This document shows positions 223-30,919 of a DNA stretch of 64,000 bases, piece after piece. Positions within the stretch are counted from its first letter, which is position 1, and every line of letters begins with the position of its first letter. The position numbers and the translations under genes are program-made. The notes beneath the pieces were generated by a model. That model was not told where the DNA came from, made no database searches, and saw only the letters and a list, made by a program, of their open reading frames with translations. This DNA is from Candidatus Omnitrophota bacterium (lineage in GTDB: Bacteria; Omnitrophota; Gorgyraeia; Zapsychrales; Zapsychraceae). The DNA lies in the NCBI GenBank assembly GCA_028280285.1, contig JANQMA010000011.1:58520-122519 (forward strand), read 5' to 3'.

Positions 223-663
223 TCACACATTCCAAGAGTAGGGAATATTTTTATCATCTAACGAAAGTGTTTCAGATTCTTGCGGTGAATGGGGCAAATC
301 CGCGCAATTCGCAATGATGGCCTTGGTATCCCCTAACGCTTTAAATGCGTATATAACTCCTGGCGGGATACGCACCAGTTGATAATGATCAACACCGATT
401 GTTATTTCTTGCACTTGACTTTTGGTCGAGGACTGGTCCCTTGCGTCATACAAGACAAGCTGTATATTACCTTCAACAACGGCAAAATTTTGTGTTTGCT
501 CACTATGCTTCTTCCACCCTTTAATGATGCCCGGATTAACGACAGAAAAATAAATTTCGCCAAACTGTGTAAAATGCCCGGCATCGTTTCTAAGCATATG
601 CATCACAGCGCCCCTGTCATCAGCAATAACTTTAAGCGGTTCAATCAAAATACCCTCAATCAT
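223..663 (-). CDS. Cupin-fold sugar-nucleotide epimerase/isomerase (dTDP-4-dehydrorhamnose 3,5-epimerase / 3,4-ketoisomerase WxcM/FdtA-like)
   Basis: ORF 223..675 (~150 aa). Size and hydrophobic beta-strand pattern fit small cupin NDP-sugar epimerases/isomerases. The first in-frame ATG at 663 overlaps the upstream stop as ATGA; the ORF-track start at 675 is GTG. Confidence 0.55.
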   Translation of the reverse strand: MIEGILIEPLKVIADDRGAVMHMLRNDAGHFTQFGEIYFSVVNPGIIKGWKKHSEQTQNFAVVEGNIQLVLYDARDQSSTKSQVQEITIGVDHYQLVRIPPGVIYAFKALGDTKAIIANCADLPHSPQESETLSLDDKNIPYSWNV

Positions 664-1766
664 GCCTTCACCCACCTTAGTTTTTTTGCTGATGCTTTGG
701 CAACATAGTCATTAATTTGTCCGACCGTTAATTCATAAATATCTTCTGTATTGCCGTAAAAACGTTTATACCAATCGGCTGTAAACTGTATCGTCTCTGA
801 AAAGTTAAGCGTCGGCGCCCATGCCAAATCCTTATGCGATTTTTCAATCGATAGCTTAAGCAGTTTGGCTTCCTTCATATTGCCTTCAAGAGGTTCATGC
901 ACCCAACCCCCTTTGCCCCAAAATTTAAGAAATTCATCAGCCAACTCGCCTACCGATTTGACCTCCCCACTATCAGGGCCAAAATTATAAGACTCTCCAT
1001 TCCCTTTGCCAGAATTTAAAAGTTCTGCCGCAAGCCACAAATACCCACTGAGTGGTTCCAGCACATGCTGCCAGGGACGCGTGGCATCGGGTTTACGGAT
1101 AACAGGTTTATCATTTTTGCTCCATGCCCGCACGCAATCCGGCACAATCCGGTCGCGGGCCCAGTCACCACCGCCAATCACATTGCCCGCACGGGCCGCC
1201 GCCACTTTCAATGTAGCGGAGTGCTGATAAAACGATCTAAAGTAGGAACTAAACGCAATCTCCGCACACGCCTTAGAGGCGCTATATGGATCAGCGCCGC
1301 CCAATTGATCTGACTCTTTATAGCCGACATCTAAACCAACATTCTCATAACACTTATCACTGGTGACAATCACTGCCGCCTGCACATAGTCGCGCGTGCG
1401 CAGTAAGTCCAAAACATTGACCGTGCCACCTAAATTCACATCAAATGTTTCTTTGGGATCATCATAAGACGCGCGCACAATCGGTTGGGCTGCCATATGA
1501 AAAACAATGTGCGGTTTAAAATCATCTACCGTTTTTACTAAAAATGAATTATCACGCACATCCCCCATAACATGGGTGATTTTTGACTCGATGTCCAACA
1601 CTTCAAAATGATTAGGATCTGACGGCAAATATTTAGAATAACCCAAAACTTCCGCGCCCAGTTCGAGTAACCACGTGGTGAGCCATGAACCCTTAAACCC
1701 GGTGTGGCCTGTTACTAAAACACGCTTATTTTTATATATATTATTGAATATCTGTAAATTATTCAT
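660..1766 (-). CDS. rfbG: CDP-glucose 4,6-dehydratase
   Basis: 368 aa. N-terminal VLVTGHTGFKGSWL Rossmann motif and SDR YxxxK core (YSASKACAE) are characteristic of CDP-glucose 4,6-dehydratases. Confidence 0.8.
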   Translation of the reverse strand: MNNLQIFNNIYKNKRVLVTGHTGFKGSWLTTWLLELGAEVLGYSKYLPSDPNHFEVLDIESKITHVMGDVRDNSFLVKTVDDFKPHIVFHMAAQPIVRASYDDPKETFDVNLGGTVNVLDLLRTRDYVQAAVIVTSDKCYENVGLDVGYKESDQLGGADPYSASKACAEIAFSSYFRSFYQHSATLKVAAARAGNVIGGGDWARDRIVPDCVRAWSKNDKPVIRKPDATRPWQHVLEPLSGYLWLAAELLNSGKGNGESYNFGPDSGEVKSVGELADEFLKFWGKGGWVHEPLEGNMKEAKLLKLSIEKSHKDLAWAPTLNFSETIQFTADWYKRFYGNTEDIYELTVGQINDYVAKASAKKLRWVKA

Positions 1767-1767
1767 T

Positions 1768-2754
1768 TTAACTCTTACGTAACAAAAAAGTTTTTTTGAT
1801 CCATTGCAAAATATTTTTACACCATTTCACTGTTATATTTGATTGTCCCAGGTCAAAAAACGTTGATTGTTTTTTGTATCGCAGAGGATCATTGCATTGT
1901 TTCTTTTGCGCAAGAATTGATAAAATCGTTACATTAACACTACCCGGTAATTTTTCATACGACGTTGATAAACATTCAAATCCGTTTTCCTCCAGGAGCC
2001 GCATCATGGCCCGTCTTGAAAAATACGTAAAATGCGTAACATCAATGGGAAGATTTCGCCCCCGCCACTTCAAAAAGAATAGCCAAAAAAATACTGTCCC
2101 TATATCATAAGGCACCTCCACATAAAGTAAGCCATCTTCTTTTAGAACATTGTGAAGATTCTTTACTTCTTTTTTCAAATCAACGCAATGCGCTAAAACA
2201 TCGCAAAAAAGAACCAGATCGACGCCTTCCGCGCAAGCAACGTCAGACGCCCATACATCTTTTTTTAAAACTTTTGGACTACATGATTGCCGTGGAATAG
2301 GGTCTAAAACAGTGCATTGATACCTTTCTTCTGCTAAATCTTTAAGCATAAATCCATCACGTCCTCCGATGTCATAAATTGTCTCTATCTTATAGTTATA
2401 TTTTTTTTCAGTATGTTTCACCATGTCATAGATGCGCTTTGAATACATGGATAAAAAATTTTGATCGGCATAAACGAATGTGTCCAAATGACGAATACGC
2501 TCCTCCAAAAGAAAATAGGATTGACTATAAATTTGATGCAGCTCTTCTTCATCAAAAAATTTACTATTATAAAAAAGACGGCAGGGTAAACAGCAGGATA
2601 TCTCACCTTTTGGTTGGGCTTGATTGGTTACTTTAAGCAATATTTCATCAATCTCAATATCTGCAATAACTCCATTTCCTGAAGGTTTTATATTAAACGG
2701 AAATGAAAATGATGGTTTTTTATGACAAACAGGACAAACAGCATACTTCTTCAT
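1768..2754 (-). CDS. SAM-dependent methyltransferase with N-terminal Cys4 zinc ribbon (NDP-hexose C-methyltransferase-like)
   Basis: 328 aa. CPVCHKK...CCLPC ribbon, then a class I methyltransferase glycine-rich motif (IYDIGGRDGF). This architecture matches TylCIII-type sugar C-methyltransferases. Confidence 0.6.
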   Translation of the reverse strand: MKKYAVCPVCHKKPSFSFPFNIKPSGNGVIADIEIDEILLKVTNQAQPKGEISCCLPCRLFYNSKFFDEEELHQIYSQSYFLLEERIRHLDTFVYADQNFLSMYSKRIYDMVKHTEKKYNYKIETIYDIGGRDGFMLKDLAEERYQCTVLDPIPRQSCSPKVLKKDVWASDVACAEGVDLVLFCDVLAHCVDLKKEVKNLHNVLKEDGLLYVEVPYDIGTVFFWLFFLKWRGRNLPIDVTHFTYFSRRAMMRLLEENGFECLSTSYEKLPGSVNVTILSILAQKKQCNDPLRYKKQSTFFDLGQSNITVKWCKNILQWIKKTFLLRKS

Positions 2755-2796: not shown

Positions 2797-3570
2797 CTAC
2801 CACTTTATCCAGGACGCATTATTGGTTTCATATAAATTTTGAAGAAATTTATAATCCCGGAAAGTATCCATGCACTGCCAAAATCCGTTGTGAACATAAA
2901 CATTCAATTCCTGGTCCTTAGCAAGATTCTGCAAAGGATCCCGTTCCAAAACACATGTTTCATCGTCAGTTAAGTAATCAAAAATCTTTTTATTAAAAAC
3001 AAAGTACCCGCCGGAGATAGAACTGGTATGATTTCTCGGCTTTTCACTGAAGGAGACCACCTTATCGCCTTCAATAGCTAATTCACCGTATTGTGAAACA
3101 GGCGCAACGCCTGTCACCGTTCCGAGTTTATCATGCGACCGGTGATATTTAACCAATTCAGTAATATCTAAATCAATAACACCGTCACCATATGTCAGCA
3201 TGAATTCGTCCCCATCAATATATTTTTCAATCCGTTTAACACGTGCACCCGTCATGGCGTTTTCACCGGTATCAACCAGTGTCACCTTCCAGTCAGATTC
3301 CATGTGACGTGGATGAATAACAATCTCACTCTTTCCAAACTCTACGGTAAAATCATTAGTGATCATTTCATATTCATAAAAAAACCGGCGGACAACCTCT
3401 CCCTTATAACCTAAACATAAAATAAAATCGGTATACCCATAATGCGCATACGTCTTCATGATGTGCCATAAAATCGGCATCCCGCCGATCTCAACCATTG
3501 GTTTCGGCTTGACTTCCGTTTCTTCCCTAAGGCGTGTGCCTTGGCCGCCACACAATATGACAACTTTCAT
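2797..3570 (-). CDS. rfbF: Glucose-1-phosphate cytidylyltransferase
   Basis: 257 aa. MKVVILCGGQGTRLREETEVKPKPMVEIGG nucleotidyltransferase signature typical of RfbF/DdhA. Confidence 0.85.
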   Translation of the reverse strand: MKVVILCGGQGTRLREETEVKPKPMVEIGGMPILWHIMKTYAHYGYTDFILCLGYKGEVVRRFFYEYEMITNDFTVEFGKSEIVIHPRHMESDWKVTLVDTGENAMTGARVKRIEKYIDGDEFMLTYGDGVIDLDITELVKYHRSHDKLGTVTGVAPVSQYGELAIEGDKVVSFSEKPRNHTSSISGGYFVFNKKIFDYLTDDETCVLERDPLQNLAKDQELNVYVHNGFWQCMDTFRDYKFLQNLYETNNASWIKW

Positions 3571-3579: not shown

Positions 3580-4704
3580 CTATTTAATAATTTCTTTAAC
3601 AGATTGAATGATGTACTCTACTTCCGCATCTGTAAGCTGCGGATAAAGCGGCAATGTGATCGTCGCATCACCGATAAATTCACAATTCGGAAAATCCCCA
3701 CGCACATATTCATATTTGTTTCGATAATAACTCATTAAATGAATAGAACGATAGTTAACAGCAACACCAATTTCAGCATCTTGAAGCGCATGTAAATATT
3801 CATCCCGTTTATTAGGATCGACCCAAATAGTATACAGGTGATACGCAGACTTTGATCCATCAACAACAGCAGGTAAACGAATATCTTTAATTTGACTAAA
3901 GGCCTTGTTGTATTTTTCTGTAATTATTCGGCGCTTTTCAAGAAAAGTGTCAATCGAATCCATCTGATGAACTAAAAGAGCGGCGGCAATATTGTTCATA
4001 TTGCATTTAAATCCCAAAAACTCCATATCGTAATGCTTGTATAATTTAGAATACCGGTCGGCCGCATCCGCGCTCATTCCATGCATCCTTGCCTTAATAA
4101 ACCACGCGTAAGCTTCTTTATCATGACATGTGATGGCCCCACCCTCTCCTGAGGTAATACTTTTTGTCGCATAAAAAGAAAAGCAGGCCATATTCGGCGC
4201 TGCTCCTATAGGTACACCATCACGCTCGCTTTCCAGACAATGCGCGCTGTCTTCAATAACTTTTACATTATGTTTTTGGGCAATCGCATTGATGCGTTTC
4301 ATATCACACATCTGCCCGTATAAATGGACCGGTAAAATCGCCTTAGTCCGCTCCGAAATTTTACCTGCAATCAACTCAGCATCAATATTGCCGGTAGATG
4401 CTTCAACATCGACAAAGACAGGTTTCGCTCCACAAGCCTCAATCGCATTGGCCGTGGCGATAAACGACATCGGTGTTGTAATAACTTCATCCCCCGGACC
4501 TATGCCGTAATAATGAAGACATAACTCCAACGCATTGGTCCCTGAACTTAACCCCACCGCATAAGAGGCGTTTAAATAGGCAGCTAACTTATCTTCGAAG
4601 GTCTTGGTCCACTCACCCGTCGTTAAAAAAAGTCCGTCCAGGACCTTACGTACTTCATCCTTATCTTTATCAGATAAATTATGCCTATAAAATTCAATTT
4701 TCAC
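3580..4704 (-). CDS. DegT/DnrJ/EryC1/StrS-family PLP-dependent sugar aminotransferase
   Basis: 374 aa. SFYATKSITSGEGG PLP-lysine motif and conserved N-terminal region. GTG start. Confidence 0.8.
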   Translation of the reverse strand: MKIEFYRHNLSDKDKDEVRKVLDGLFLTTGEWTKTFEDKLAAYLNASYAVGLSSGTNALELCLHYYGIGPGDEVITTPMSFIATANAIEACGAKPVFVDVEASTGNIDAELIAGKISERTKAILPVHLYGQMCDMKRINAIAQKHNVKVIEDSAHCLESERDGVPIGAAPNMACFSFYATKSITSGEGGAITCHDKEAYAWFIKARMHGMSADAADRYSKLYKHYDMEFLGFKCNMNNIAAALLVHQMDSIDTFLEKRRIITEKYNKAFSQIKDIRLPAVVDGSKSAYHLYTIWVDPNKRDEYLHALQDAEIGVAVNYRSIHLMSYYRNKYEYVRGDFPNCEFIGDATITLPLYPQLTDAEVEYIIQSVKEIIK

Positions 4705-4779: not shown

Positions 4780-6732
4780 TTAGTTAGGACTAACGGTCTC
4801 TGAAACAACCTCTCTTACAGGAATATTGTCTTCGATACTCTTCTTGGCCGCAGTACGCATTTTCAATCTTTTATTTCCATAGCTACTGCGTAGTTTAGCG
4901 TCAATGAGTTTTTGAAATTGAAAGGTCGCGTTAATTTTCTTATTGATATGCTTCCATCCAATGATCCTATGGAAAATGTTACGTAATTTCAATTTCCAGC
5001 CGGCCAATCCAGTTTGACGGAAGACCTCCAGCTGCTCCAAACTTTCAATATTGTCTTTGATCGACGTTAAAATAAACGTCTCTTCAAAATTATCACCATA
5101 CGGTAAAAGCTCAACGAGCGGCGGAAAAACATACTGCTGTTCAAGCGGTGTAAAATCACCGGTCTCTATCGCGTGCATCTTTAATTCTATCTCTTCTGTC
5201 CGGTCTTCCGGTTTAATTAATCCATACTCAATCTTAGCATTGTCGTATTCCTTGCTGACAAAGTAATATTCAAATAACAGTTTGTGCTTGTTAGGAAGTT
5301 CCTCGACGTTAAACAGATTATCTAATTTAAACTTTTTGGCAAGTTGACAAAACTCCTCGAAACGTTCCATACGTTTCAAATATGTGCTATTCCCGTCTAA
5401 ACTCTCCCAAAACAAATGCCCCTTGGCTAAATCAATACCATGTTTTTCCGGATCAGCATGTCCCGCCGATCCCGGATAATACTCACAAAAATTAAGTGAA
5501 GGATTAACCATGCTAAACGACTTTTTATTTTCAACGAGAAATTTAATCAAATATTGAAAATCATCCTCCGTCTCCGTTGGAAGACCAAACATAATGTTAA
5601 CGCTCACATAAAGCCCGGCCTTTTTCCCTTCACGCAACACAGCTCCGATGTCCACATCCTTACACAGGTTCTTGCCAACCTCGGCTAATAGACGCAGCGA
5701 AGGCGTTTCCATCCCATATCCAAGAAGTGTGCAGCCCGCTTTTTTAAGCTTTTTATAAAGCGGTGTGCGCATCTCTTTACGGATAACGGCATTTTCTAAA
5801 TTCCATTCAATCTCTTTATTCAAGCCTGATTCAATCATCATATCGCAAAATTTCTCCAACTCACCGATTTTTGAGTTCGAGATATTATCACACATGCGTA
5901 AATAATTTAAGTTCGGATATTTGGCCTTTTGATATTTCACCTCTTCGAACAACCGCTCAGCTGAACGCACGCGGAATGTTTTCATAAAACCGATCGCGCT
6001 GCAGTAGTTGCATTTATTCACACACCCGCGCGTCGTATAGGTTGGCAGCGCATTAGGCTGATCATAATAACTGAATTCAAAATCATCAAAATCAGGAAAA
6101 GGCAGTGAGTCTAGCTTCTTAATAAATTCCGCGTGAGGTCCCCGGATAACCTTTCCGTTATGTTTATAAACAAACCCCGGAACGGCTTGACCTTCCTGAC
6201 CATTTAAGACCATTTTCATAAACCCGAGAAGCGCATTCTCTCCTTCATCCTGGCTGACCGCGTCAATATAATCACGGGAAAGTAAGCTGTCAGTATTTTT
6301 CATAAAACTGGCAACATCAGGCCCGCCCAGCATATGAATATAACCAGGAAAGATATTACGTAAATCTTCTAAAAATATTTCTGCTAAAATACGGGAAGAA
6401 CATTGGCAAGAACAGGCCACAACCAACGGGTTTAAATCACGAATGCGCTGCATAAACTCAAGGAAAATCGCGCGGTTATTTTTGTAGTACTCATACATTG
6501 CTTCCTGATCCATGCAATAGTTGTACCCCTGCGCCATATCCCAATAAAATCTATATTTCTTGCCACCCAAATTATACGCGTGCGCGTTAATATCTAAGAT
6601 CTTACACTTGATATCGTTTTCCGCTAAAAAACTTTTTAGCAAAGCCGGCCCTAACGGCGGGCACCCTACGCCCCAAAAAGGCATTTGGATCAAAACAATA
6701 TCTGCTTCACGTGTTTCAGTTGATCTTTTCAT
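4780..6732 (-). CDS. Cobalamin(B12)-binding radical SAM enzyme
   Basis: 650 aa. N-terminal B12-binding Rossmann-like region (ADIVLIQMPFWGVGCPPLGPALLKSFL), canonical CxxxCxxC (TRGCVNKCNYC) and a long C-terminal extension. Confidence 0.75.
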   Translation of the reverse strand: MKRSTETREADIVLIQMPFWGVGCPPLGPALLKSFLAENDIKCKILDINAHAYNLGGKKYRFYWDMAQGYNYCMDQEAMYEYYKNNRAIFLEFMQRIRDLNPLVVACSCQCSSRILAEIFLEDLRNIFPGYIHMLGGPDVASFMKNTDSLLSRDYIDAVSQDEGENALLGFMKMVLNGQEGQAVPGFVYKHNGKVIRGPHAEFIKKLDSLPFPDFDDFEFSYYDQPNALPTYTTRGCVNKCNYCSAIGFMKTFRVRSAERLFEEVKYQKAKYPNLNYLRMCDNISNSKIGELEKFCDMMIESGLNKEIEWNLENAVIRKEMRTPLYKKLKKAGCTLLGYGMETPSLRLLAEVGKNLCKDVDIGAVLREGKKAGLYVSVNIMFGLPTETEDDFQYLIKFLVENKKSFSMVNPSLNFCEYYPGSAGHADPEKHGIDLAKGHLFWESLDGNSTYLKRMERFEEFCQLAKKFKLDNLFNVEELPNKHKLLFEYYFVSKEYDNAKIEYGLIKPEDRTEEIELKMHAIETGDFTPLEQQYVFPPLVELLPYGDNFEETFILTSIKDNIESLEQLEVFRQTGLAGWKLKLRNIFHRIIGWKHINKKINATFQFQKLIDAKLRSSYGNKRLKMRTAAKKSIEDNIPVREVVSETVSPN

Positions 6733-6861: not shown

Positions 6862-7893
6862 TTAATGCATTTCTACCTTCCCACTGGTGGTATGGATAGG
6901 CACATGTTTCATCCATTCCAGGGCCTCCCACCACTGCGGATTATCCTGGTACCATTGGATTGTTTTCGTAAGTCCTTCTTCCACAGTGGTTTTCGCTTCC
7001 CAGCCCAGCAAATCCTTCGCCTTTTGGGTGGTTGCCTTATGCAGGGCCACCTGCCCCGGGCGATTGCCGATATAATCAATCAGATCCTCGGGTTTGCCCA
7101 ACTGTTTGAGAATAATCTTAGCCATATCCAATACACTGACGGCTTCACCGGTCCCGATATTGATAATCTCATTTTTAATCGCATCAAAATCCTTGATATG
7201 GAGCGCCGCATCAATCGCCTGGCAATGATCTTCGACATAAATCCAGTCGCGCTTGGCTCCGCCATCGCCATGAACAGTCAACTTTTCATCTTTGAGTGCG
7301 CTTGTAATAAAACGCGGTGTCATTTTTTCTAAATGCTGGCGGGCTCCGTAATTATTAAACGGACGCAAAATAACCGCCGGCAGATCATGACAAGACCAAT
7401 AAGAGTAAACCAAACGATCGGCTCCGGCTTTAGCACCGGCATAAGGGGACAGTGGATTTAAAATATCTTCCTCACTGATAATCTCCCCTGCCGCCGTTCC
7501 ATATACCTCAGATGTTGAAATATGAATGAAGCGTTCGATATGATCATATTTAAGCAGCGCATTCATCATTGTTTGCGTGCCGATCACGTCCGTATCAAAA
7601 AACTTGGTATTATCAAAAATCGAACGCGCCACGTGTGTTTCAGCGGCCAGATGCACAACATGCGTTGCCTTGGCCATCAGTTCATTGACAATATACGGAT
7701 TGGTGACATCCCCGTACCAAAACTCAAAACGCCCTGAATCCCGGATTTCTTTGGAAATGTTTTTTTCATTACCCGCGTAGGTTAACGAATCCAAAACAAT
7801 GAAATGGTATTTCTTATATTTTGTAAATAAATAATCCAATAAATTACTGCCGATAAAACCAGCCGCGCCCGTTAATAAAATCGTTTTTTTCAT
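6862..7893 (-). CDS. rfbB: dTDP-glucose 4,6-dehydratase-like NAD-dependent sugar dehydratase
   Basis: 343 aa. GAAGFIGSN, HLAAETHVARS and HISTSEVYG motifs as in RmlB/RfbB. Confidence 0.7.
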   Translation of the reverse strand: MKKTILLTGAAGFIGSNLLDYLFTKYKKYHFIVLDSLTYAGNEKNISKEIRDSGRFEFWYGDVTNPYIVNELMAKATHVVHLAAETHVARSIFDNTKFFDTDVIGTQTMMNALLKYDHIERFIHISTSEVYGTAAGEIISEEDILNPLSPYAGAKAGADRLVYSYWSCHDLPAVILRPFNNYGARQHLEKMTPRFITSALKDEKLTVHGDGGAKRDWIYVEDHCQAIDAALHIKDFDAIKNEIINIGTGEAVSVLDMAKIILKQLGKPEDLIDYIGNRPGQVALHKATTQKAKDLLGWEAKTTVEEGLTKTIQWYQDNPQWWEALEWMKHVPIHTTSGKVEMH

Positions 7894-7912: not shown

Positions 7913-8845
7913 TCAAGTTAGAACAGCGTTTGTATTAACAATACTACTTAGTTTAAGAAATTTATCGCTTGCGTATGCATAAGCCACCTGCAATACGCGC
8001 AAGACACCATCACTTGTTGCGACATCACCATAATCATCATTTAATTCAATAATCATCCCCGGAGATTCATTACTTGTATAACCGGCTATCTCCGCCTGCC
8101 AAATAATAATTTTCTCGTCATTATAAAAAAAGAATGCCCCGGGATAAGGAAATGACAAAGCTCTAATCAAATTCCAATTCGCTTTGGCCGGCTCATTAAA
8201 ATTAAGCCGCCCATCTTCAGGCCGCCGGCGTTTTAAATAAGTTGCCTGAGTATGATCTTGTTTGATGCGCTTGTTGGTTCCATTAATAATGGCCTCTAAA
8301 TTATTTAAAATAATTTTCGGATATAGAGGTGTAATTTTTTCATTCAACGTTGTTGCGGTTTCATCGGGGGCGATATCAATGCTCATCTGATCGACGATAT
8401 CTCCTGCGTCAACGGCTTCATTGATATAGAACAATGTCACACCGGAGGTTTTTTCTTCATTAATAATCGCCCAATTCGTTGGAGCAAATCCGCGGTTTTT
8501 TGGCAGTAAAGAATCGTGCAAGACAAAAATCCCCTGCGCCGGAATTGCAAAACAATCGTTATTAATCAGATAACGCCAACCGACAACAAAGACAATATCA
8601 ACATCACATCGTTGTAAATAGTCACTGTAATCTTCGGGTTTAATTCTGTCCGAGGTTTCGCACAGAATATTGTTTTGTTCACACAAAGCTATAATATCTT
8701 CTGTTTTATTATTCAATTCGTGCGCCTCTTGTTTAAGAACAAACGCATGTGTGACAGCACAACCATCGTCAAGCAGTGCTTTTAAAACGACCAGCCCGCG
8801 TTCCCCGGCAAGAAACAATCCGATGTTTGACTGTTTATCACTCAC
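7913..8845 (-). CDS. Sugar N-formyltransferase (Fmt/ArnA-N-like formyltransferase family)
   Basis: 310 aa. Formyltransferase core HDSLLPKNRGFAPTNWAIIN and the folate-binding region. GTG start overlapping the upstream stop (GTGA). Confidence 0.7.
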   Translation of the reverse strand: MSDKQSNIGLFLAGERGLVVLKALLDDGCAVTHAFVLKQEAHELNNKTEDIIALCEQNNILCETSDRIKPEDYSDYLQRCDVDIVFVVGWRYLINNDCFAIPAQGIFVLHDSLLPKNRGFAPTNWAIINEEKTSGVTLFYINEAVDAGDIVDQMSIDIAPDETATTLNEKITPLYPKIILNNLEAIINGTNKRIKQDHTQATYLKRRRPEDGRLNFNEPAKANWNLIRALSFPYPGAFFFYNDEKIIIWQAEIAGYTSNESPGMIIELNDDYGDVATSDGVLRVLQVAYAYASDKFLKLSSIVNTNAVLT

Positions 8846-10128
8846 ACCATTAATTCCTTAAATAAATTTTTGTAATTTTCCGCATACTTTTCGGGCAGTA
8901 TTTTTTCCCGTGCCGCTTTAATATCAGTTTTGGCAACATCTTCTTCAAATTCAAACAAAGTCTGGTATAAGCCACGGCTGAAATCTTCCTCATCATAACA
9001 ATCAACAAGATAACCTGTTTGGGGTGATGTAATAAAATCCGGGGCTACGCCTCTGTTAAACGCGATCACACGGCTGCCGCACATAATCGCTTCATTGATC
9101 ACCATCGGTCCACAGTCATCTATAGAAGGACAGGCAAATATGTCACACGCCTGATAGGCCTTGACAATTTTACGGTTATCATCCAATAATCCTAAATTAA
9201 TCCACGGGCAACCGATTTGATCAGCGGCGAAACCATTGGCATTGCCAAACGTCACCAAGGCAAAGTTGTCTTTCTCCTCTGCAGAAAGTCTTTGCATAAG
9301 CAGTTTAAGCGCACCGAGAAGATGCTTGCCCCCTTTGCGTGGATCGTTTAGATTAAAACATCCATATAAAATAATTTTTTTATTGAGCGGAAGCCCTAAA
9401 TCTTCACGCGCTTGCGTTTTATCACCCATCATAAATTCTTTATCATTAATACCGATTAATATCTTCTCTATACGACGATTACGCGATAATAAACTTTTAT
9501 GACACTGCTCATGCGACCATGATGTGGGCGCGACAAAGGTGAGCGGGATATCAGCAAACATGCTCCGTTTTTCCTCCCAATGCTTCGCAATCACATCATT
9601 TCTTAATTGAACTCCGAGCTGTGGACACTCTTCACACTTTTCTTTAAACTTTTCACAGCCAGCATTAAAATGGCAACCACCCGTGAGTGGCTCAATATCC
9701 ATCGTTGTCCACACCATTGGTGTTTTAAAAACATCGTAGATCCGCCGGATAAGTCTTGCCGAAAGAAAATCCTGAACCGAATGCAAACAAATAATATCCG
9801 CGCCTTTTAGATAAGATCGCAACCGGTTAAAAGACACAGCCGGCAGATTAAAATTAATTAAAGTTTTAGGCTCGCATTTAAGCGTGTAATACTTGCGCCG
9901 CAACCTGTGGATCACCAGGTTGATATAATGCCAATGATATTTAAAGACATTTAAAACAGATTTAACCGGATGGCCTTTAACAAGCTCAACCACCTTCTCT
10001 ACTTTAGATTTTTTTCTATAAACAAGCATTTGGGAATCGCAACCGCAGGCATTAAGCGCCTGGTGAAGTGTCAAAACAGCACGGCCGGCCCCATCAAAAT
10101 CATTGTTTGTTAAATGGATTATTCGCAT
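8842..10128 (-). CDS. Glycosyltransferase family 1 (GT4-like, GT-B fold)
   Basis: 428 aa. N-terminal MRIIHLTNNDFDGAGRAV and a C-terminal nucleotide-sugar-binding half typical of GT1/GT4 retaining transferases. Confidence 0.7.
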   Translation of the reverse strand: MRIIHLTNNDFDGAGRAVLTLHQALNACGCDSQMLVYRKKSKVEKVVELVKGHPVKSVLNVFKYHWHYINLVIHRLRRKYYTLKCEPKTLINFNLPAVSFNRLRSYLKGADIICLHSVQDFLSARLIRRIYDVFKTPMVWTTMDIEPLTGGCHFNAGCEKFKEKCEECPQLGVQLRNDVIAKHWEEKRSMFADIPLTFVAPTSWSHEQCHKSLLSRNRRIEKILIGINDKEFMMGDKTQAREDLGLPLNKKIILYGCFNLNDPRKGGKHLLGALKLLMQRLSAEEKDNFALVTFGNANGFAADQIGCPWINLGLLDDNRKIVKAYQACDIFACPSIDDCGPMVINEAIMCGSRVIAFNRGVAPDFITSPQTGYLVDCYDEEDFSRGLYQTLFEFEEDVAKTDIKAAREKILPEKYAENYKNLFKELMV

Positions 10129-12038
10129 TTCACATGTACTGTATTATATTTCTCAGCATTCTTGAAAAAAGATTCATATTCCTCAGCACCGCCAGAACTA
10201 TATCTTTCCGGTGGTAAAATATAATCACCGGCCGGAGCTCTTAAAAAATTATCAATAATCTCAATCGCTTCATCCGCATTAGTATAACCTTGCAAATTTT
10301 TATCAAATGTTTTTAAAGCATTTGGCCGCACCCTTTGATCACCGATGCGATATAGACCCAATGTCGGGATTTTGGAAAAAATAGATTCAAAGTAAGCCGT
10401 ACTTGCTATATCACATATGACATAATCGGCTTTTACCAACCATTCCTTTAATTTTTTTTCAGAATACAGAATATTTTTTGCTTTAGAATCCTCGATAACT
10501 TGCCCCATATAATCAAATCCTTGCCCCTGATTAATCAATCCCTTCCAAACAAAATCAAACTGTGGATTGTTTTGAAAATACTGAATGAATTTTTTATGAA
10601 GACTTATGTACTCCATAGGAAAAGATTGACATAATTCTACAGGACGGCTTGGCCATAAAGCATCCATAACAGGCACAAATAAAACCATTTTATTTTTATT
10701 AGCTGTTTTTTGTTTACGCTTCTCTATAATTTCACCATAAGATTGTTGAAAGTAAGAATATGAATAAAATTTGGTCGAAACGCCAGGCCATTGCCGGGCC
10801 AAAGTTGTTTCATGTTCAGCCTCTTGATCGGTCATCGTATAATAATAATCAAAAATCTTCTCCAGAAACATAAGCCTCGATGGTGAATCAGACACATCAC
10901 ACCCATGGGAAAGTCCTATCTTTTTACATGTTGTTATCCTCCTCGCCGCATCCAAAGCCCCGAGCGCTTCAGGAGTATACAAAACATGTACAGCAACAGC
11001 ATTTATTTTGAATTGAGTGAGGATCTGCTCAAAAACCTTGGAACTCTTAATTATCTCTGGAACATAAAATAATAAACACTTTTTTAAACGCGACATTATT
11101 AAAGGTGTAACCTGCGCTCCTGCATGATCATCAATCCAATCCAAAATTTTCGCATCAGATAATTTTTGCTCAACAGAGGCCCATTGAGGAAGATTGAGCT
11201 TTTGACCGGCATTTAAAGCGTCAACATTTTCAACAATATCACCGGTTTCCGCGTTAATCATCTTTCGTCTACTCAACCAATACACACTAATATTTTTTTT
11301 AAGAAGGCTGCGCGTCATATCCAAAATATAAGGACTTTGGGTTAAGAATAATACACGCCCATCAAAATCTGAATTTTGTTTAGAAGCCGCATTGGTTTTT
11401 AATTGAAAATTTTGGAAAAACTCTGAAAAAGAAAATTTAAACGGAAGAGGTTTTAAAATTTTGTTAATACTCTCTTTAAATAAAACAAATTTTGATCTGT
11501 AGCCGTGAGCGTTATTTACTATTTTATTTATGACTTGGACTCTTTCAAATTCAATACCCAACTGCTTGGCCACGACGCCACAAACTCTCGAATATGTACT
11601 CTCCGCTCCTCGAAAGGCTAAAAAACAATCAAATTCATCATTTGCATACTTTTGACTACAAAAAATAATACGTGTGGGATTTGCCGTATTACAAAATTTT
11701 TTTAAAATTTTTGTCGTTAAAATAATATTATCAACCAAATATTTAAGATGATGAAAATACAGCGAGGCCACGTTCATTTCCAAACGCTTGGCTTCATCAA
11801 AAATATCTTGCACAACATAATCGAAATCACTTAACCATTTTAACTGTTCAGATAAATACGCCTTTGTGTCACCACGCATTTCTCCTGAAGAGTAGTAATC
11901 TTCTAAAGCCTCAAAATCAATTCCACATTGCTCTAAACAATAGTAAACCTGCTGATTTAGAGCGACAACCTTAAAAGAGCTCTTATCTTCCGGAAAAACA
12001 ATGTCTTTTGAAAAATCTTCTATTAAATAATAAATCAT
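10119..12038 (-). CDS. Large TagF-like (CDP-alcohol phosphotransferase / capsule-synthesis GT-B family) putative transferase
   Basis: 639 aa. C-terminal motif ADYVICDIASTAYFESIF resembles the TagF D-x-L-I-T-D-Y-S-S-x-x-F-D active-site motif. A paralogue lies at 31620..33527. Confidence 0.4.
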   Translation of the reverse strand: MIYYLIEDFSKDIVFPEDKSSFKVVALNQQVYYCLEQCGIDFEALEDYYSSGEMRGDTKAYLSEQLKWLSDFDYVVQDIFDEAKRLEMNVASLYFHHLKYLVDNIILTTKILKKFCNTANPTRIIFCSQKYANDEFDCFLAFRGAESTYSRVCGVVAKQLGIEFERVQVINKIVNNAHGYRSKFVLFKESINKILKPLPFKFSFSEFFQNFQLKTNAASKQNSDFDGRVLFLTQSPYILDMTRSLLKKNISVYWLSRRKMINAETGDIVENVDALNAGQKLNLPQWASVEQKLSDAKILDWIDDHAGAQVTPLIMSRLKKCLLFYVPEIIKSSKVFEQILTQFKINAVAVHVLYTPEALGALDAARRITTCKKIGLSHGCDVSDSPSRLMFLEKIFDYYYTMTDQEAEHETTLARQWPGVSTKFYSYSYFQQSYGEIIEKRKQKTANKNKMVLFVPVMDALWPSRPVELCQSFPMEYISLHKKFIQYFQNNPQFDFVWKGLINQGQGFDYMGQVIEDSKAKNILYSEKKLKEWLVKADYVICDIASTAYFESIFSKIPTLGLYRIGDQRVRPNALKTFDKNLQGYTNADEAIEIIDNFLRAPAGDYILPPERYSSGGAEEYESFFKNAEKYNTVHVKCE

Positions 12039-12077: not shown

Positions 12078-13067
12078 TTATACTCTAATAAAGCACTCCT
12101 GAGCATTCTGTTCGTATTGATCCACAAGCCGCTTCACAATATTTTTACCTTCCTCAGATGCTAAGCTGCTAATCACATCCCATTTTTTCTTCCTGTCCGC
12201 TTCATCGATGACACGCGGACATTTTTCCCGTTTCATAATACTCAAAGTATCTTTTGAAAATTTTGTGCCAATCACATCGGAGCAATGACCCAAAACCTTC
12301 TCTGTATCTTCAGCTAATTGTTCAAATATGATTGTCGTAATTTGGTTTTTATGACTTTTATCCAACGCATCATACGCTTTGTTATGCTGATCATCGATAT
12401 AATCAATCATAAAGATAATACGATCCATCGGTTCTAAACTCATAAACTTTTCAGCCCATGGAAGCGCATAATAGGGCACTACCCCCCATTCGGTTTGTAT
12501 CGTTGTTGCCCCCATACGAGGGCTTTCATAAACATCCTCTCCATAGTTTTTTGTATGCCAAGAATATATAATGTCAACAGGGTGGCGAATGATATTAAAC
12601 ATTTTTACTTTAGGAAAGGCTTTAAAATACGTTTGATTTTGCCATACGCCATTATGAATCATATAAACATTTATAGGATTAACATTTTTAATCCGTTCAT
12701 ACACCTCCACCCCTTCTTTGGTATATAATCGACGGACATACTCCTGAGGATCTCTATAGCTCCAGGCTCCTGTATAATCTCCGGGACGAAAATTAACATT
12801 GCGCCCTAAAAAACTATCATAAAGCGCTAAATTAACATGATACCGAGCAAGATATGCCGCTGACTCATGATCCATATACCCGATCGTACTCAGTATGGCC
12901 ACCTGCTCTAGAATTGCACTGTGCACAATGTTTTCTGCACGCTCTAAACTACATATTAATGGGCACAGAAGTGTTTTTCCTGATCTAGTAAAGCCGGTGA
13001 CAAAAACTAAATTATCGGAGACAATAGATTTAAATAATTTTTGTGAATTCACATATATTCCTTCCAC
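12078..13067 (-). CDS. PAPS-sulfotransferase-fold protein
   Basis: 329 aa. 5'-PSB loop FVTGFTRSGKT and 3'-PB motif RHPVDIIYSW match sulfotransferase nucleotide-binding signatures. GTG start. Confidence 0.65.
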   Translation of the reverse strand: MEGIYVNSQKLFKSIVSDNLVFVTGFTRSGKTLLCPLICSLERAENIVHSAILEQVAILSTIGYMDHESAAYLARYHVNLALYDSFLGRNVNFRPGDYTGAWSYRDPQEYVRRLYTKEGVEVYERIKNVNPINVYMIHNGVWQNQTYFKAFPKVKMFNIIRHPVDIIYSWHTKNYGEDVYESPRMGATTIQTEWGVVPYYALPWAEKFMSLEPMDRIIFMIDYIDDQHNKAYDALDKSHKNQITTIIFEQLAEDTEKVLGHCSDVIGTKFSKDTLSIMKREKCPRVIDEADRKKKWDVISSLASEEGKNIVKRLVDQYEQNAQECFIRV

Positions 13068-13076
13068 ATGCCCTCT

Positions 13077-13625
13077 TTATTTCTGTAATACTCCTTTTTG
13101 AGATAAAAATGCTTTAATTTTTTGAAGACTATCTTCAACAGACTCCTTATAAGGATGCACTATAACATCAGGAGTTCTAGGCCTCTCATATGGCAAATCC
13201 ACACCTAATAGTTGTGGGTTATCTTTCGGCATAGTTGTAGCGTAAACTTTTTTAGGATCATTGTTAATGCAATCAGCAATATCCGCATCTAAAAATATTT
13301 GTATATAATTTTCCCATTTCCGTCTTAAAAAATCTCTGACAATATATTGTCCGGCAATATTAGCCACAATGACATCTATTCCGTTTTTTGCAAGCAAGCT
13401 TGCAGCAAATGCAATATTTTTTGTTACGGCGAAACGTTCTTCTAAACCATATCCAAATTTCTGCTCATAAAAATCTCTTACAGTATCTCCATCAATTAAT
13501 TCTACAGGATGGCGGTCGCACTGCTGAAGTTCCTTTTTTAAAGCTAAACCTAATGTGGTCTTACCAGAACCTGATACGCCTGTTAACAAAATAATAAAAC
13601 CAGAACGCTCTTTAACTTTTAACAT
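13077..13625 (-). CDS. Adenylylsulfate (APS) kinase homologue; candidate CDP-phosphoramidate 3'-kinase (Cj1415-like)
   Basis: 182 aa. P-loop LLTGVSGSGKTTLG and CysC-like length. Confidence 0.8.
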   Translation of the reverse strand: MLKVKERSGFIILLTGVSGSGKTTLGLALKKELQQCDRHPVELIDGDTVRDFYEQKFGYGLEERFAVTKNIAFAASLLAKNGIDVIVANIAGQYIVRDFLRRKWENYIQIFLDADIADCINNDPKKVYATTMPKDNPQLLGVDLPYERPRTPDVIVHPYKESVEDSLQKIKAFLSQKGVLQK

Positions 13626-13631
13626 AATTGT

Positions 13632-14564
13632 TTAATCTTTTTTCTGAGCACACACAATAGCTGTTTTTGCTAAACAGCACAAAAATCCGAGAAAGGATAC
13701 CTTAGTAATTTTGTTAAAAAACCCGTCAACATTGCGGTTCAACGTAAAATTATTTACCTTTTCAGAAATACAATAGTAAGCACCATCGCATGACACCATT
13801 TGAAACAATGCATTTTTTAAAACTTTCCTTAATCTCATATAAGAATAAAGTCTCTTTTTAAGCGTATAAGATTTTTTCGTAATTCCTTTTGTCATAAACG
13901 GCAAGTTAAAAAAAGAAGTATTACGAAAACGTCCGAATATAATGCCCAATCTAGAATCACATAAAATTGATTTAAACGCCGGAAATAGCTCGTTTTCTTC
14001 ATAACAAATAAAATAAACACCCGAACGTATAAACTCTCTAAAAGAATTAAATGCCAGCCCCATCCCGCTACAATTACGCTGGGCTAATAGAATACGGCCT
14101 CCCTTTTTTAAAACACGTCGAGCTTCTGTCAGGCAAAAATTAATATCATAAACATACTGTAAAACACCTACCGCTATGACCACATCAAATGATTCATCTT
14201 CATAAGGCAACCTTTCATCTAAGTTTCCACATCGGAAATCAAATAAATCTTCTGAAACAACATTTTTGCAACGCTGTTTTGCACACACAAGTAACTTTTC
14301 ACTAACATCAAGTCCAGAGACTTTATATCCCAGCTCACATAATTTAGCAGCAGTATGCCCTGCCCCACAGCCGAGTTCAAGTACACGCGAACCTTGAGGA
14401 AGGTTAAACTTTTGTACATGATTAATAACTTTTTGTTGGCGTGAATTAACATAATAAGCAACATGTTGATCGGAAGAATCATAATGCTTATCCCACGCCA
14501 AAATATTTTCGGTATTCCACCACCCTTTCACATTTTCCATTTGAACATCTCGATCAATTGCCAT
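13632..14564 (-). CDS. Class I SAM-dependent methyltransferase
   Basis: 310 aa. VLELGCGAGHTAAKL SAM-binding motif. Confidence 0.65.
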   Translation of the reverse strand: MAIDRDVQMENVKGWWNTENILAWDKHYDSSDQHVAYYVNSRQQKVINHVQKFNLPQGSRVLELGCGAGHTAAKLCELGYKVSGLDVSEKLLVCAKQRCKNVVSEDLFDFRCGNLDERLPYEDESFDVVIAVGVLQYVYDINFCLTEARRVLKKGGRILLAQRNCSGMGLAFNSFREFIRSGVYFICYEENELFPAFKSILCDSRLGIIFGRFRNTSFFNLPFMTKGITKKSYTLKKRLYSYMRLRKVLKNALFQMVSCDGAYYCISEKVNNFTLNRNVDGFFNKITKVSFLGFLCCLAKTAIVCAQKKD

Positions 14565-14579
14565 TCTAACCCCTTCATC

Positions 14580-15872
14580 TTAAGTATAATTTTGTTTACC
14601 CTTTCCCGGAAAAATTTTTAATTTTAATAATCTAGGTACATGTAAAATGCGGACAAAAAATGCATAAACATAAGCTGCAATGGCTGTAAAACGTGGAGGA
14701 GCAATCATCGCCCGACGGGTTCCTGTATTCATAAGCGTTAAATAGAGTGTTATTTTCTCAACATCATCAAAATATTTTTTTTGATAATCATAATCAAAAA
14801 AAAATTTTTTATCTAATTGCGTCAAATCCAGCACAACATCCTTTGTAGATTCAATCAATTCAATCAGCGCTTTGGTTTCTTTCTTAATCAAATCAATTTC
14901 ATCATCCCGCAGCCACTTATTATATGATTGAAGGAGTCCTTTATTAACGCCCTGTTGTTTACCAGAATGGGAATTACCATGCCAATCAACGCCGCCTATT
15001 GTCGGATTAATTAAAGTGTCATCATAATCAATACCGACGCATTTAGATAACATCTGCATAGATTCAACAACATTTTTAACCAGGTAGTCATAACTCAAAA
15101 CAATAAACCTTTGATCACACCCGTATTTTTCCTGCAATAATACTAACCGGGTAACCGCCACCTTCCACGCGCGGATTAACGCCTTTAAATCATAATTGTT
15201 AAAACTCTTGATAAAATTATTAGGAAAAGGCGGATAGGAAAACCTCCGTGATCCATAATACCGTTTAACCAGTCGTGATTTTTCAGAAGCAATAAGGCCG
15301 AGTGGATTTCTGAGCGAATGCATAAAAACCGAACCGGAAAATTCTTGAAAAAAATCTTCAATATTGGTCAAATAAAGCCCCGCACTGGCATGCATCACCA
15401 CATACCCGGCCTCTTTACCGTGGGCCCCATTATCCCATGCCTCAAAATAGGCCTTATGCCGCGCGTCATAATACCCGGCGACAGAACCGGCATCTTTGGC
15501 ATAATCAACAACGAGATCTTTAAATTGATCAAAACTAAAATCGGTTTTAACCGCACCGTAATATTGCTTCTCTAAATAATTTTGCCTTACCCCGATTTTA
15601 TCACCCTGTTCTTTACCATATTTTAAAATGACATCCGGTTTTTCTTCAGGGATACCTAATAATGAAAATAACGATTCCTGATTAAAATCATCCCGTTTAG
15701 GAACCGTCATGGGTATTCCCAAATGATTTTCAAAACGCTTATAAAATTTATCAGAAAAAGGAAACCCTACTTCCACAGGATAACTGGCTATTTGTGGATG
15801 CCCATCAAATAAACGTGCTAACAAAGATCCGCCGCTCCTTTGCACACCCCCGATAAAAATGGTCTTATACAT
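14580..15872 (-). CDS. PAPS-sulfotransferase-fold protein
   Basis: ORF 14580..15890 starts at TTG. The in-frame ATG at 15872 gives MYKTIFIGGVQRSGGS (5'-PSB loop). A 3'-PB-like motif LRNPLGLIAS is present. It abuts the stop of the upstream cytidylyltransferase gene. Confidence 0.6.
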   Translation of the reverse strand: MYKTIFIGGVQRSGGSLLARLFDGHPQIASYPVEVGFPFSDKFYKRFENHLGIPMTVPKRDDFNQESLFSLLGIPEEKPDVILKYGKEQGDKIGVRQNYLEKQYYGAVKTDFSFDQFKDLVVDYAKDAGSVAGYYDARHKAYFEAWDNGAHGKEAGYVVMHASAGLYLTNIEDFFQEFSGSVFMHSLRNPLGLIASEKSRLVKRYYGSRRFSYPPFPNNFIKSFNNYDLKALIRAWKVAVTRLVLLQEKYGCDQRFIVLSYDYLVKNVVESMQMLSKCVGIDYDDTLINPTIGGVDWHGNSHSGKQQGVNKGLLQSYNKWLRDDEIDLIKKETKALIELIESTKDVVLDLTQLDKKFFFDYDYQKKYFDDVEKITLYLTLMNTGTRRAMIAPPRFTAIAAYVYAFFVRILHVPRLLKLKIFPGKGKQNYT

Positions 15873-15874
15873 GA

Positions 15875-16639
15875 TTATTCCCATCTCCAATCATGTATCC
15901 AGGGCGAATCACCAACAGCCACCAACTGTTGTTGATATAACTGCAAATCATTGACATTATCTGCTTCACACCAACGGCCATCAACACCGACCGTCTCAAT
16001 CCTTCCCTGAACCATCAAAACTTTATTTAATAATGCCGTCATATCTAATTTATCTAAATCCTCTGAAGACATTGTTTGAGTTATAGCATCAACACCCGCC
16101 CAACCTGCGGGAGTGAATTTTAGCAGTCCCATGTATTGGCCTTGAATATCGTCAACCGAACGCGGAGTCTGGCCAATTTCCGTCAACAGTCCATCATCAT
16201 CAACCTTGAACGTTTCCGCATCAGACAAAGGATCTTCAAAACGTAAACGCCACAACTTTTCCCATAAGCGGTCGTAGCTAATAACGATATCCCCCTTTGC
16301 CTGTTTAATACTTTCAATAATTTTAGGGTGATAAACTATATCCGCGTAGGAAACAATGCAGTCTTCATTCATTAAATAAGAACCGGCGCAAAACAAAGAT
16401 TGCACCATATTAGTCTGTTCCCATCTTTCGTTAACCAAAACCTCACAACCGCTGTCAACTAACATATCTTTACGGTATCCGCCAACGACAACCACGTCAT
16501 CCAACCCGGCATCCTTTAACGCGCTTATTTGCCAAGACAATAAACTTCGATCAACAAGCTTGGCTAAACACTTGGGCTTGTCTGCTGTTTCATCCCCCAT
16601 CCGGGATCCCCGTCCCGCCGCTAAAATAATGGCCTTCAT
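15875..16639 (-). CDS. Sugar/phospho-nucleotidyltransferase (candidate CTP:phosphoramidate cytidylyltransferase, Cj1416-like)
   Basis: Internal ATG gives MKAIILAAGRGSRMGDETADKPK. ATGA overlap with the upstream stop. ~254 aa. Confidence 0.75.
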   Translation of the reverse strand: MKAIILAAGRGSRMGDETADKPKCLAKLVDRSLLSWQISALKDAGLDDVVVVGGYRKDMLVDSGCEVLVNERWEQTNMVQSLFCAGSYLMNEDCIVSYADIVYHPKIIESIKQAKGDIVISYDRLWEKLWRLRFEDPLSDAETFKVDDDGLLTEIGQTPRSVDDIQGQYMGLLKFTPAGWAGVDAITQTMSSEDLDKLDMTALLNKVLMVQGRIETVGVDGRWCEADNVNDLQLYQQQLVAVGDSPWIHDWRWE

Positions 16640-17292
16640 GAGCAACTCATCTTTTCTTTAAAAATTTTGTGGAATAACCGCTGATCACAGGTTTGAAAAG
16701 GGTTATTGCGTTCCGGATGCCACATCGTCGCAAAGATTGGTAATCCCTTTACACCCATGGCCTCAACAATTTCATCTGAAGTTTGTGCCACAACATCCAA
16801 CTGCTTATCGACATCAGATGCTTTAAAACCAAAATGATGGTAGGAGTTCACCCTTATACTTTCAGATTCAAAACATGATTGAAAAGCACCGGGCGTTATA
16901 TCAACCTCGTGTTCTTTGGCGACATGCACATCCGCGTCACATTGGCTTAACTTTCCGCCAAAATAAACATGTAAGAGCTGCAAACCTCGGCAAATACCAT
17001 ATAAAGGCAACTTATTTTCAATGGCGAACTTCAATAATGTTTTCTCTGTTGCGTCACGTACTGGAGAATCTCCCACGCTATCTCCACCGGTTAAAATGAA
17101 CCCGTTTAACGCGTGTGCATTCACATAATCAAGAACCGGCTCTCCAAGATTAGGAATTAAAACCCACTTTTCCCCCTCTAATAAAAAATCAAGGCACGCG
17201 TACCAATCCCGCGCTAAAGCATCTCTTGGTTCGTTATATCCCTCCGCGTTAGATGTTCTTAGCGTAACGCCTATACGTAATTCTTTATTCAT
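16636..17292 (-). CDS. Class I glutamine amidotransferase / gamma-glutamyl hydrolase (Cj1417-like)
   Basis: 218 aa. GATase1 nucleophile elbow LPLYGICRGLQLL, and HPE near the C-terminus. Confidence 0.75.
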   Translation of the reverse strand: MNKELRIGVTLRTSNAEGYNEPRDALARDWYACLDFLLEGEKWVLIPNLGEPVLDYVNAHALNGFILTGGDSVGDSPVRDATEKTLLKFAIENKLPLYGICRGLQLLHVYFGGKLSQCDADVHVAKEHEVDITPGAFQSCFESESIRVNSYHHFGFKASDVDKQLDVVAQTSDEIVEAMGVKGLPIFATMWHPERNNPFQTCDQRLFHKIFKEKMSCS

Positions 17293-23015: not shown

Positions 23016-23050
23016 AGATTTAAAAAGTTTTGAATGTGTAAAATTAACAA

Positions 23051-23797: not shown

Positions 23798-23809
23798 GCT
23801 TTCCTCTCT

Positions 23810-25543: not shown

Positions 25544-25725
25544 TTTGTCCCCCTTTTGCGGGTCTTTAATATGGCAATATTATTACAACTTATTGGCAAA
25601 TATACCAGTTTTTTCTTTAAAAAAAATTGACGTTCAATATTTGAACATTTTAAAAAATTGATCATGATTATTGTTCAATTTATGAACACGATCTACTGTC
25701 TAATTTTAAAAATACACCTACTTTT

Positions 25726-26928: not shown

Positions 26929-26937
26929 AAAATTTTC

Positions 26938-28374: not shown

Positions 28375-28385
28375 AAAAAACTCCC

Positions 28386-28829: not shown

Positions 28830-28853
28830 TAATACATCCTTTCTAAAATTTGC

Positions 28854-29690: not shown

Positions 29691-29698
29691 AACATCTC

Positions 29699-30181: not shown

Positions 30182-30186
30182 AACAA

Positions 30187-30909: not shown

Positions 30910-30919
30910 TTATACTCCT

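Follow-up and report, generated by a model that had tools for sequence, protein, structure and literature searches.

Nearly all known class B radical S-adenosylmethionine (SAM) methylases come from the pathways of antibiotics, cofactors, lipids and peptides. CysS, MgmA and TokK, which are cobalamin methylases of sp3 carbon and the nearest solved relatives by sequence of the enzyme studied here, act on carrier-bound antibiotics or protein glutamine, not on surface glycans. For sugars, the precedent is that of GenK (gentamicin C-6') and GenD1 (C-4''), two C-methyltransferases of the cobalamin radical SAM type whose targets are unactivated sugar carbons in already assembled pseudo-oligosaccharides (PMC4340712). 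Both come from actinomycetes, where they are encoded in aminoglycoside clusters of secondary metabolism, and the motif of GenD1 is Cx4Cx2C; they are likened to our enzyme by description, not by sequence. In this work we analyse a radical SAM enzyme of 650 amino acids (aa) with a cobalamin-type N-terminal domain, encoded on the minus strand of a 64,000-nucleotide stretch (hereafter the window) of contig JANQMA010000011.1 from a Candidatus Omnitrophota bacterium.

The clade to which the enzyme belongs is uncharacterised and is dedicated to the biosynthesis of cell-surface glycans. Based on our analysis, we consider it somewhat probable that it is a class B radical SAM C-methyltransferase tailoring an unactivated carbon of a surface-glycan sugar.

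Domain architecture and family placement of the enzyme

The 650-aa open reading frame (ORF) starts with ATG and is a real gene, because exact homologues of its product exist: identical copies are present in one NCBI contig and one Logan contig (E = 0), and 186 homologues are found at E <= 0.001 among 8000 candidates scored. The initial annotation had described a B12-type N-terminal domain, the motif CVNKCNYC, a radical SAM core and about 250 aa at the C terminus, all of which are borne out by the ORF, the Pfam matches and the motif positions (Table 1). The core is matched by Pfam Radical_SAM PF04055 at residues 232-399 (E 3.5e-13), and the AlphaFold2 model of the enzyme has a predicted local distance difference test (pLDDT) value of 87.9. 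The approximately 250 residues C-terminal to the Pfam core (400-650), which had been pointed out before as an extension, are present but are ordinary for the class, TokK having 681 aa and CysS 645 aa. Within this region a stretch of about 100 aa (412-500) is conserved, with W442, R454 and E459 invariant in the homologue alignment, and the helical tail past residue 500 is variable, being absent in the 511-aa Salidesulfovibrio orthologue and longer in the forms of ~800 aa. A domain fusion was considered for the ~190 extra residues of the latter forms and rejected, as these residues form a helical insert of low complexity ahead of the last helix; neither a separate homologous ORF nor a Pfam domain was found for the insertion.

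Three base-off cobalamin motifs are common to OxsB, TsrM and TokK, namely a downstream G-x-S on beta3, a Gly-Gly on beta4 and a Gly-Glu at the start of alpha5 (PMC9204698). All three are present in our enzyme, as A106-C-S108, G136-G137 and E163-G164-E165, and in the HMMER alignment its A-C-S-C-Q-C-S, GGP and EGE are aligned with A-L-S-C-Y-V-W, GGP and GEGE of TokK. Counted over the 118 homologues of at least 480 aa, the GG, the E-G-E and the three cluster cysteines C237, C241 and C244 are each conserved in 118/118, position 106 is Gly or Ala in 117 and position 108 is Ser or Thr in 113. The site equivalent to the Tyr of TokK, Arg69 of TsrM and Asn186 of OxsB is occupied by H, Y, F, Q or K among the homologues and by Gln110 here; under the corrin our enzyme has Gln110/Ser112 where TokK has Tyr/Trp76. 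Judged from these motifs, it is likely that the enzyme would bind cobalamin.

None of the curated NCBIfam models is matched above its cut-off. The best match, over residues 92-399, is to TIGR03975 (rSAM_ocin_1), the PoyB/C-type C-methyltransferases of ribosomally synthesised and post-translationally modified peptides, with E 2.9e-36 and 125.2 bits vs a cut-off of 281.85; the proteins are of similar length (~600 aa), but no precursor-peptide context is present at our enzyme, which stands in glycan biosynthesis instead. The models for BchE (83.7 bits vs 481), HpnJ (81.6 vs 578), Sden_1168 (69 vs 575), PhpK (50 vs 600) and HpnR (48 vs 650) are matched still more weakly, and with all scores far under the cut-offs the grouping with non-sugar families of the BchE/HpnR type, which the initial annotation had considered, is not found.

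In a search of the PDB sequences with the family profile, the B12 domains of CysS (9.6e-17), MgmA (1.2e-10) and TokK (9e-10) are matched, and AprD4 only at 0.058; the N-terminal domain used alone as query reaches only TokK. Our enzyme has in common with CysS, TokK and MgmA the order of Rossmann cobalamin domain, radical SAM core and C-terminal domain as well as the GG, GE and downstream cobalamin motifs, with an identity of only 13-17%. The top Foldseek matches of the AlphaFold2 model are CysS, TsrM, OxsB, MgmA and TokK, and the fold-comparison values are 25.3 for AprD4, 25.2 for CysS, 25.1 for TsrM, 24.5 for MgmA, 23.5 for RimO, 21.2 for TokK and 20.5 for OxsB. Since the value for AprD4 equals that for CysS, the fold alone cannot separate the cobalamin methylases from the cobalamin-free dehydratase AprD4, whereas the sequence evidence does separate our enzyme from it. 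Thus the class B features that can be tested, i.e., the Fe-S motif and core, the Rossmann domain and the base-off motifs, are all seen in the sequence and the model, and by its sequence the enzyme is of the class B radical SAM kind but of no curated subfamily.

Orthologue loci in glycan clusters

The gene context was sampled at 18 non-redundant loci with orthologues of at least 386 bits, where the ORFs were scored against the window proteins and the gene content was counted within 10 kb. All 18 loci are glycan clusters, in line with the sugar-pathway setting that had been read for the B12-domain radical SAM enzyme from the window. The carriers are Candidatus Omnitrophota (nearest, 77% identity), Planctomycetia, Pelagibacteraceae (SAR11) single-cell genomes, Chromatiales, Gallionellaceae, Salidesulfovibrio brasiliensis, Elusimicrobia and Cloacimonetes (the last from the source name of protein P0050). 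By contrast, distant homologues (<37% identity, mostly Elusimicrobia) lie amid radical SAM paralogues with none of the sugar-pathway genes of the window nearby, and therefore the glycan association belongs to this clade only. A metagenome scan with the family profile gave 80 loci, of which only 3 are close relatives, on short contigs that add no context.

The most frequent partner is a family 4 glycosyltransferase (GT4), which is present in 14 of the 18 loci, as the next gene in 7 and as the second gene after a short-chain dehydrogenase/reductase (SDR) in 3, the enzyme and GT4 genes overlapping at times by their stop and start; in loci L009, L010, L011 and L016 the enzyme gene is followed directly by the orthologue of the window's GT4 (phmmer 370-380 bits). 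An SDR lies at most two genes from the enzyme in most loci. A DegT aminotransferase is present in 13/18, the cytidine diphosphate (CDP)-6-deoxyhexose cassette (rfbF, rfbG, usually with cupin and reductase) in 9/18 and an O-methyl-phosphoramidate cassette in 5/18. A compact module, rSAM-SDR-GT4-rfbF-rfbG-cupin-SDR, is common to L025, L052 and L135; DegT is absent from some of these modules (L052, L025), and in L052 no aminotransferase is found within 8 kb. On a simple neighbour-joining tree, which carries no support values, the CDP-linked loci are scattered over several branches, some of them deep. The S. brasiliensis orthologue is encoded inside a flagellin-glycosylation island of nonulosonic-acid type, together with NeuB, DegT, a formyltransferase, PIG-L, a NeuC-like epimerase and a Maf-like protein.

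It is noted that the orthologues in the Pelagibacteraceae are of ~810-840 aa (L012 9956-12412, L017 9884-12406) and raise the question of the cobalamin source for those cells; the L012 protein, P0057, retains all the cobalamin motifs. Note also that locus L004 (3940-13120) has two tandem paralogues of the family and a third B12-radical SAM gene (670 aa), the latter directly after a phosphoenolpyruvate (PEP) mutase-cytidylyltransferase, a phosphonopyruvate decarboxylase and an iron-type alcohol dehydrogenase, which is a Fom3-like arrangement in a glycan cluster. In L053 and L135, other B12-binding radical SAM genes, of ~500 aa, precede the gene of the 650-aa family at a distance of one or two genes.

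Proposed reaction and rival explanations

If the enzyme is a methylase, its [4Fe-4S] cluster at C237/C241/C244 would reductively cleave SAM to give the 5'-deoxyadenosyl radical, which would abstract a hydrogen from an unactivated sp3 carbon of the sugar, with the sugar being either a nucleotide-activated 6-deoxyhexose intermediate or one already transferred by the linked GT4. The substrate radical would then take the methyl from methylcobalamin, which the N-terminal Rossmann domain would bind base-off, and a second SAM would remethylate the cob(I)alamin. This course is proposed after the nearest characterised relatives: the data show the domain architecture, the motif conservation and the glycan-cluster setting in many phyla, and we infer the cobalamin binding, the methyl transfer and which carbon is attacked. 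Action on an assembled saccharide would be compatible with the frequent GT4 adjacency, with the overlapping frames and with GenK and GenD1, whose action on assembled oligosaccharides fits the tight glycosyltransferase linkage of our enzyme.

Several points weigh against this reading. Some class B enzymes, such as OxsB and BchE, are non-methylating (PMC12931638). Pfam B12-binding (PF02310) reaches 21.8 bits at residues 92-168 of our enzyme, under its gathering score of 32.1; the score is above the gathering score in orthologues such as P0066 of Salidesulfovibrio (46 bits) and P0046 (35.8 bits). No functional name is carried by any of the 186 homologues and no member of the clade is characterised. 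No sugar pathway is universal around the enzyme, as is seen from the counts for the CDP cassette (9/18) and DegT (13/18), and therefore the substrate cannot be named. Moreover, orthologues occur in SAR11, where little cobalamin-dependent metabolism is known. In the literature, within a limited open-access scope that makes this weak evidence, no characterised cobalamin radical SAM enzyme was found in O-antigen, capsule or nonulosonate/pseudaminic-acid pathways or in Omnitrophota.

One alternative is that the Rossmann domain holds no cobalamin and that the enzyme, like the apramycin enzyme AprD4, carries out a radical 1,2-diol dehydration of a sugar, with the adjacent SDR reducing the ketone to leave an extra deoxy position. 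The SDR, which in most loci is no more than two genes away, would suit this alternative, AprD4 working with a reductase partner, AprD3. Moreover, AprD4, a protein of 456 aa which lacks the long C-terminal domain, has a Rossmann-like domain and yet binds no cobalamin (2026 review, PMC12931638). We consider this alternative unlikely: the curated AprD4 model NF033070 gives no match to our enzyme at E <= 0.01, the family profile finds AprD4 far behind CysS, as given above, and across the 118 homologues, all from within the family, GG and EGE never change and G-x-S/T does so only rarely, a conservation that is hard to explain without the cofactor. If cobalamin is bound, the enzyme could still catalyse another reaction than methylation, i.e., a radical rearrangement, a ring contraction or C-C bond formation on the sugar skeleton in the manner of OxsB. 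It is true that OxsB is among the top fold matches, that class B has non-methylating members (PMC9204698, PMC12931638) and that the 'lower-face' residue, at a site considered to tune the chemistry (PMC9204698), varies among H, Y, F, Q and K; but the closest sequence relatives are all methylases, and methylases are by far the largest characterised class B group (PMC12931638), so that this alternative appears to us quite improbable.

It is also conceivable, though very unlikely in our estimate, that the enzyme modifies a non-sugar substituent of the glycan, either a phosphoramidate or phosphonate, by P- or C-methylation as with PhpK or Fom3, or an N-acyl group. A complete cassette of O-methyl-phosphoramidate type is present directly upstream of the enzyme in 5/18 loci, L004 joins two paralogues with a PEP-mutase phosphonate set, the P-methyltransferase models Sden_1168 and PhpK are weakly matched (69 and 50 bits), and in Campylobacter Cj1419 and Cj1420 are without an assigned function (PMC11800397). 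By contrast, 12/18 loci have neither the phosphoramidate nor the phosphonate cassette within 10 kb, a phosphoramidate offers a P-H or C-H bond to methylate only in its methyl ester, and the C-methyltransferase models outscore the P-methyltransferase models.

Neighbouring sugar genes and implications

Table 1. Features of the window around the radical SAM enzyme, with positions, strand and the evidence for each
Feature	Position	Strand	Evidence
B12-domain radical SAM enzyme, 650 aa	4780..6732	-	ORF, Pfam/NCBIfam matches, AlphaFold2 model, 186 homologues
N-terminal Rossmann cobalamin-type domain, residues ~12-200	6133..6699	-	A106-x-S108, G136-G137, E163-G164-E165
CxxxCxxC [4Fe-4S]/SAM motif CVNKCNYC, residues 237-244 (C237, C241, C244)	6001..6024	-	conserved in 118/118 homologues
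Radical SAM core (partial TIM barrel), residues ~228-411, with the G-x-E SAM motif at G340-x-E342	5500..6051	-	Pfam, model secondary structure, invariant residues
C-terminal domain, residues ~412-620	4873..5499	-	conserved 412-500, then variable helical tail (helices in model)
RmlC-like cupin (epimerase/isomerase) of CDP cassette	223..675	-	PF00908
rfbG, CDP-glucose 4,6-dehydratase	660..1766	-	TIGR02622 457 bits, over cut-off of 278
Zinc-ribbon class I methyltransferase, TcaB9/KijD1/MtmC-like fold	1768..2754	-	Pfam, cysteines, Foldseek
rfbF, glucose-1-phosphate cytidylyltransferase	2797..3570	-	TIGR02623 341.5 bits, over cut-off of 300
DegT/PseC/ArnB-like aminotransferase, directly downstream of enzyme	3580..4704	-	PF01041 E 1e-112; TIGR03588 335 bits vs cut-off of 423
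RmlB-like SDR, nucleoside diphosphate (NDP)-sugar 4,6-dehydratase-like (STSEVYG / YAGAK)	6862..7893	-	TIGR01181 316 bits vs cut-off of 365
ArnA-N-like sugar N-formyltransferase	7913..8845	-	Formyl_trans_N + Formyl_trans_C; NF005414 199.7 bits vs cut-off of 316
GT4 glycosyltransferase	8842..10128	-	Pfam Glycos_transf_1

Between 35854 and 223 every gene lies on the minus strand, in a tight array of at least 33 genes. The array opens with the genes for a small helix-turn-helix protein (35294-35854) and for an MsbA/PglK-like ABC exporter (33475-35343), and transcribed divergently from it is a PMT_2 (ArnT-like) glycosyltransferase (36114-37697, +). Because the whole array is on the minus strand, the enzyme is transcribed before rfbF, the methyltransferase and rfbG, and its earlier placement downstream of these genes was wrong, its actual position being upstream (5'). 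Its position between the DegT aminotransferase and the RmlB-like SDR agrees with the coordinates. The view that it is embedded in a CDP-hexose sub-cluster holds in part: the CDP genes are nearby, but the immediate flanks, the SDR, the DegT aminotransferase and the formyltransferase, look like a separate 4-amino/4-formamido-sugar set, apart from the CDP set. The SDR is directly upstream of the enzyme, and its orthologues adjoin the enzyme in L009 and L010. Its motif STSEVYG has Ser where RmlB-type dehydratases have Asp (STDEVYG), as in enzymes of the GMD/UXS/LegB type; no rmlA-type thymidylyltransferase is seen among the annotated window genes. Past the window start the CDP set goes on, as seen in L001, with an RmlD-like reductase and a GT2/GT4 protein; the cupin and the reductase are read from L001 genes 12936-13376 and 13416-14324.

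The zinc-ribbon methyltransferase had been called a TylCIII-like C-methyltransferase, a label that stands as to the fold and the CxxC...CxxC pattern (C7, C10, C55 and C58, with C55/C58 invariant) but not as to the sequence. The Pfam scan gives only the generic Methyltransf_23/11/12, with PF08421 (Methyltransf_13) and PF08484 (Methyltransf_14) absent, and against the PDB sequences there is no TcaB9 match at E <= 10 but only a generic methyltransferase. The AlphaFold model (pLDDT 82.9), made with a shallow alignment of 8 sequences, which is the number of homologues retrieved, has MtmC, KijD1 and TcaB9 at Foldseek ranks 1-10 (E 1e-13 to 1e-11; TM 0.54-0.61 over ~350 columns), ahead of generic methyltransferases. 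The fold and the four-cysteine match therefore make the assignment as a TylCIII/TcaB9-like NDP-sugar C3-methyltransferase structurally plausible. Like TcaB9, KijD1, MtmC and TylCIII, the protein carries an N-terminal module with four cysteines ahead of its class I SAM fold, and it adjoins a 4,6-dehydratase that would supply a 4-keto substrate; it differs from them in being ~80 aa shorter and in standing in a CDP instead of a dTDP context. Because TcaB9-type enzymes use the 4-keto group, the methyltransferase with RfbF, RfbG, the cupin and the reductase alone would explain a CDP-6-deoxy-3-C-methylhexose, and a 3-C-methyl branch requires no radical SAM step.

The pairing of the radical SAM enzyme with this methyltransferase, from which the initial annotation had drawn its product, is not a conserved feature, since the methyltransferase is intact in only 3 of the 18 loci (window, L009, L025) with 1 fragment in addition (L053). 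The doubly C-methylated CDP-amino-deoxyhexose is thus not supported as stated and we regard it as very improbable, because the pairing is seldom seen, some modules do without the aminotransferase and no nucleotide carrier can be named for the amino-sugar branch. In L053 (13457-14107), short ORF fragments that resemble the C-terminal helix of the enzyme and the zinc-ribbon methyltransferase lie side by side, as if a copy of the pair had decayed there.

Further up the array, at 12078-19684 (-), there is a near-complete O-methyl-phosphoramidate cassette of Campylobacter type, with a pyruvate phosphate dikinase-like protein that passes NF004508/PRK05849 (915 bits; Cj1418-like), a C26 amidotransferase with gamma-glutamyl-CDP-amidate hydrolase as its best match (96 bits, below the cut-off of 250), an NTP_transf_3 cytidylyltransferase, an APS-kinase-like protein, a Methyltransf_11 protein and two proteins of 'sulfotransferase' fold. 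A LIC12162-family protein (10119-12038) comes after the cassette, and it and the sulfotransferase-fold proteins may be the transferases. The same set precedes the enzyme orthologues in L009, L010, L011 and L016. A strict functional tie of the enzyme to this cassette was rejected as a general explanation, the cassette being absent from 13/18 loci. Phosphoramidate decoration outside Campylobacter, in Omnitrophota, Planctomycetia and Chromatiales, is possibly of interest in itself.

In addition, two nonulosonate-type sets are present at 19691-31639 (-). In the first, PseI (19691-20758, passes TIGR03586) is accompanied by a HAD hydrolase, an ATP-grasp protein and PseH-like (acetyltransferase) and PseF-like proteins; the second (28854-31639) has a short NeuB (28854-29690, 278 aa), a KdsC-like HAD hydrolase and a methyltransferase, and to it also belong a further CMP-sugar synthetase, a cupin and a CBS-SDR fusion (26938-28374). 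The window has one more B12-binding radical SAM gene (23810-25543, -, 577 aa), which is located in a pseudaminic acid sub-cluster, between PseC (25726-26928, passes TIGR03588) and a PseF-like cytidylyltransferase; it passes Pfam B12-binding with 39.8 bits, passes no curated family and is 24% identical to the 650-aa enzyme.

Finally, we note that the family of the 650-aa enzyme spreads from Omnitrophota to SAR11 and that in the window it is present alongside the second, unrelated B12-radical SAM gene. We propose tentatively, as a possibility that we hold to fall short of probable, that the enzyme, the GT4, the SDR and the CDP-6-deoxyhexose cassette constitute a widespread undescribed pathway for alkylating an unactivated carbon of a surface-glycan sugar, with what would be, as far as the literature covered here shows, the first enzyme of this kind in primary cell-envelope glycan biosynthesis. 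The orthologue in the cultured Salidesulfovibrio brasiliensis JCM 12178 makes the hypothesis testable. If it is true, class B chemistry would be extended to ordinary cell-surface sugars, through a conserved clade that in eight or more phyla is tied to clusters for lipopolysaccharide, capsule and flagellin glycans, C-alkylated sugars that are possibly missed by standard glycan analysis would be predicted, and the diversity of surface antigens would be tied to the supply of cobalamin.

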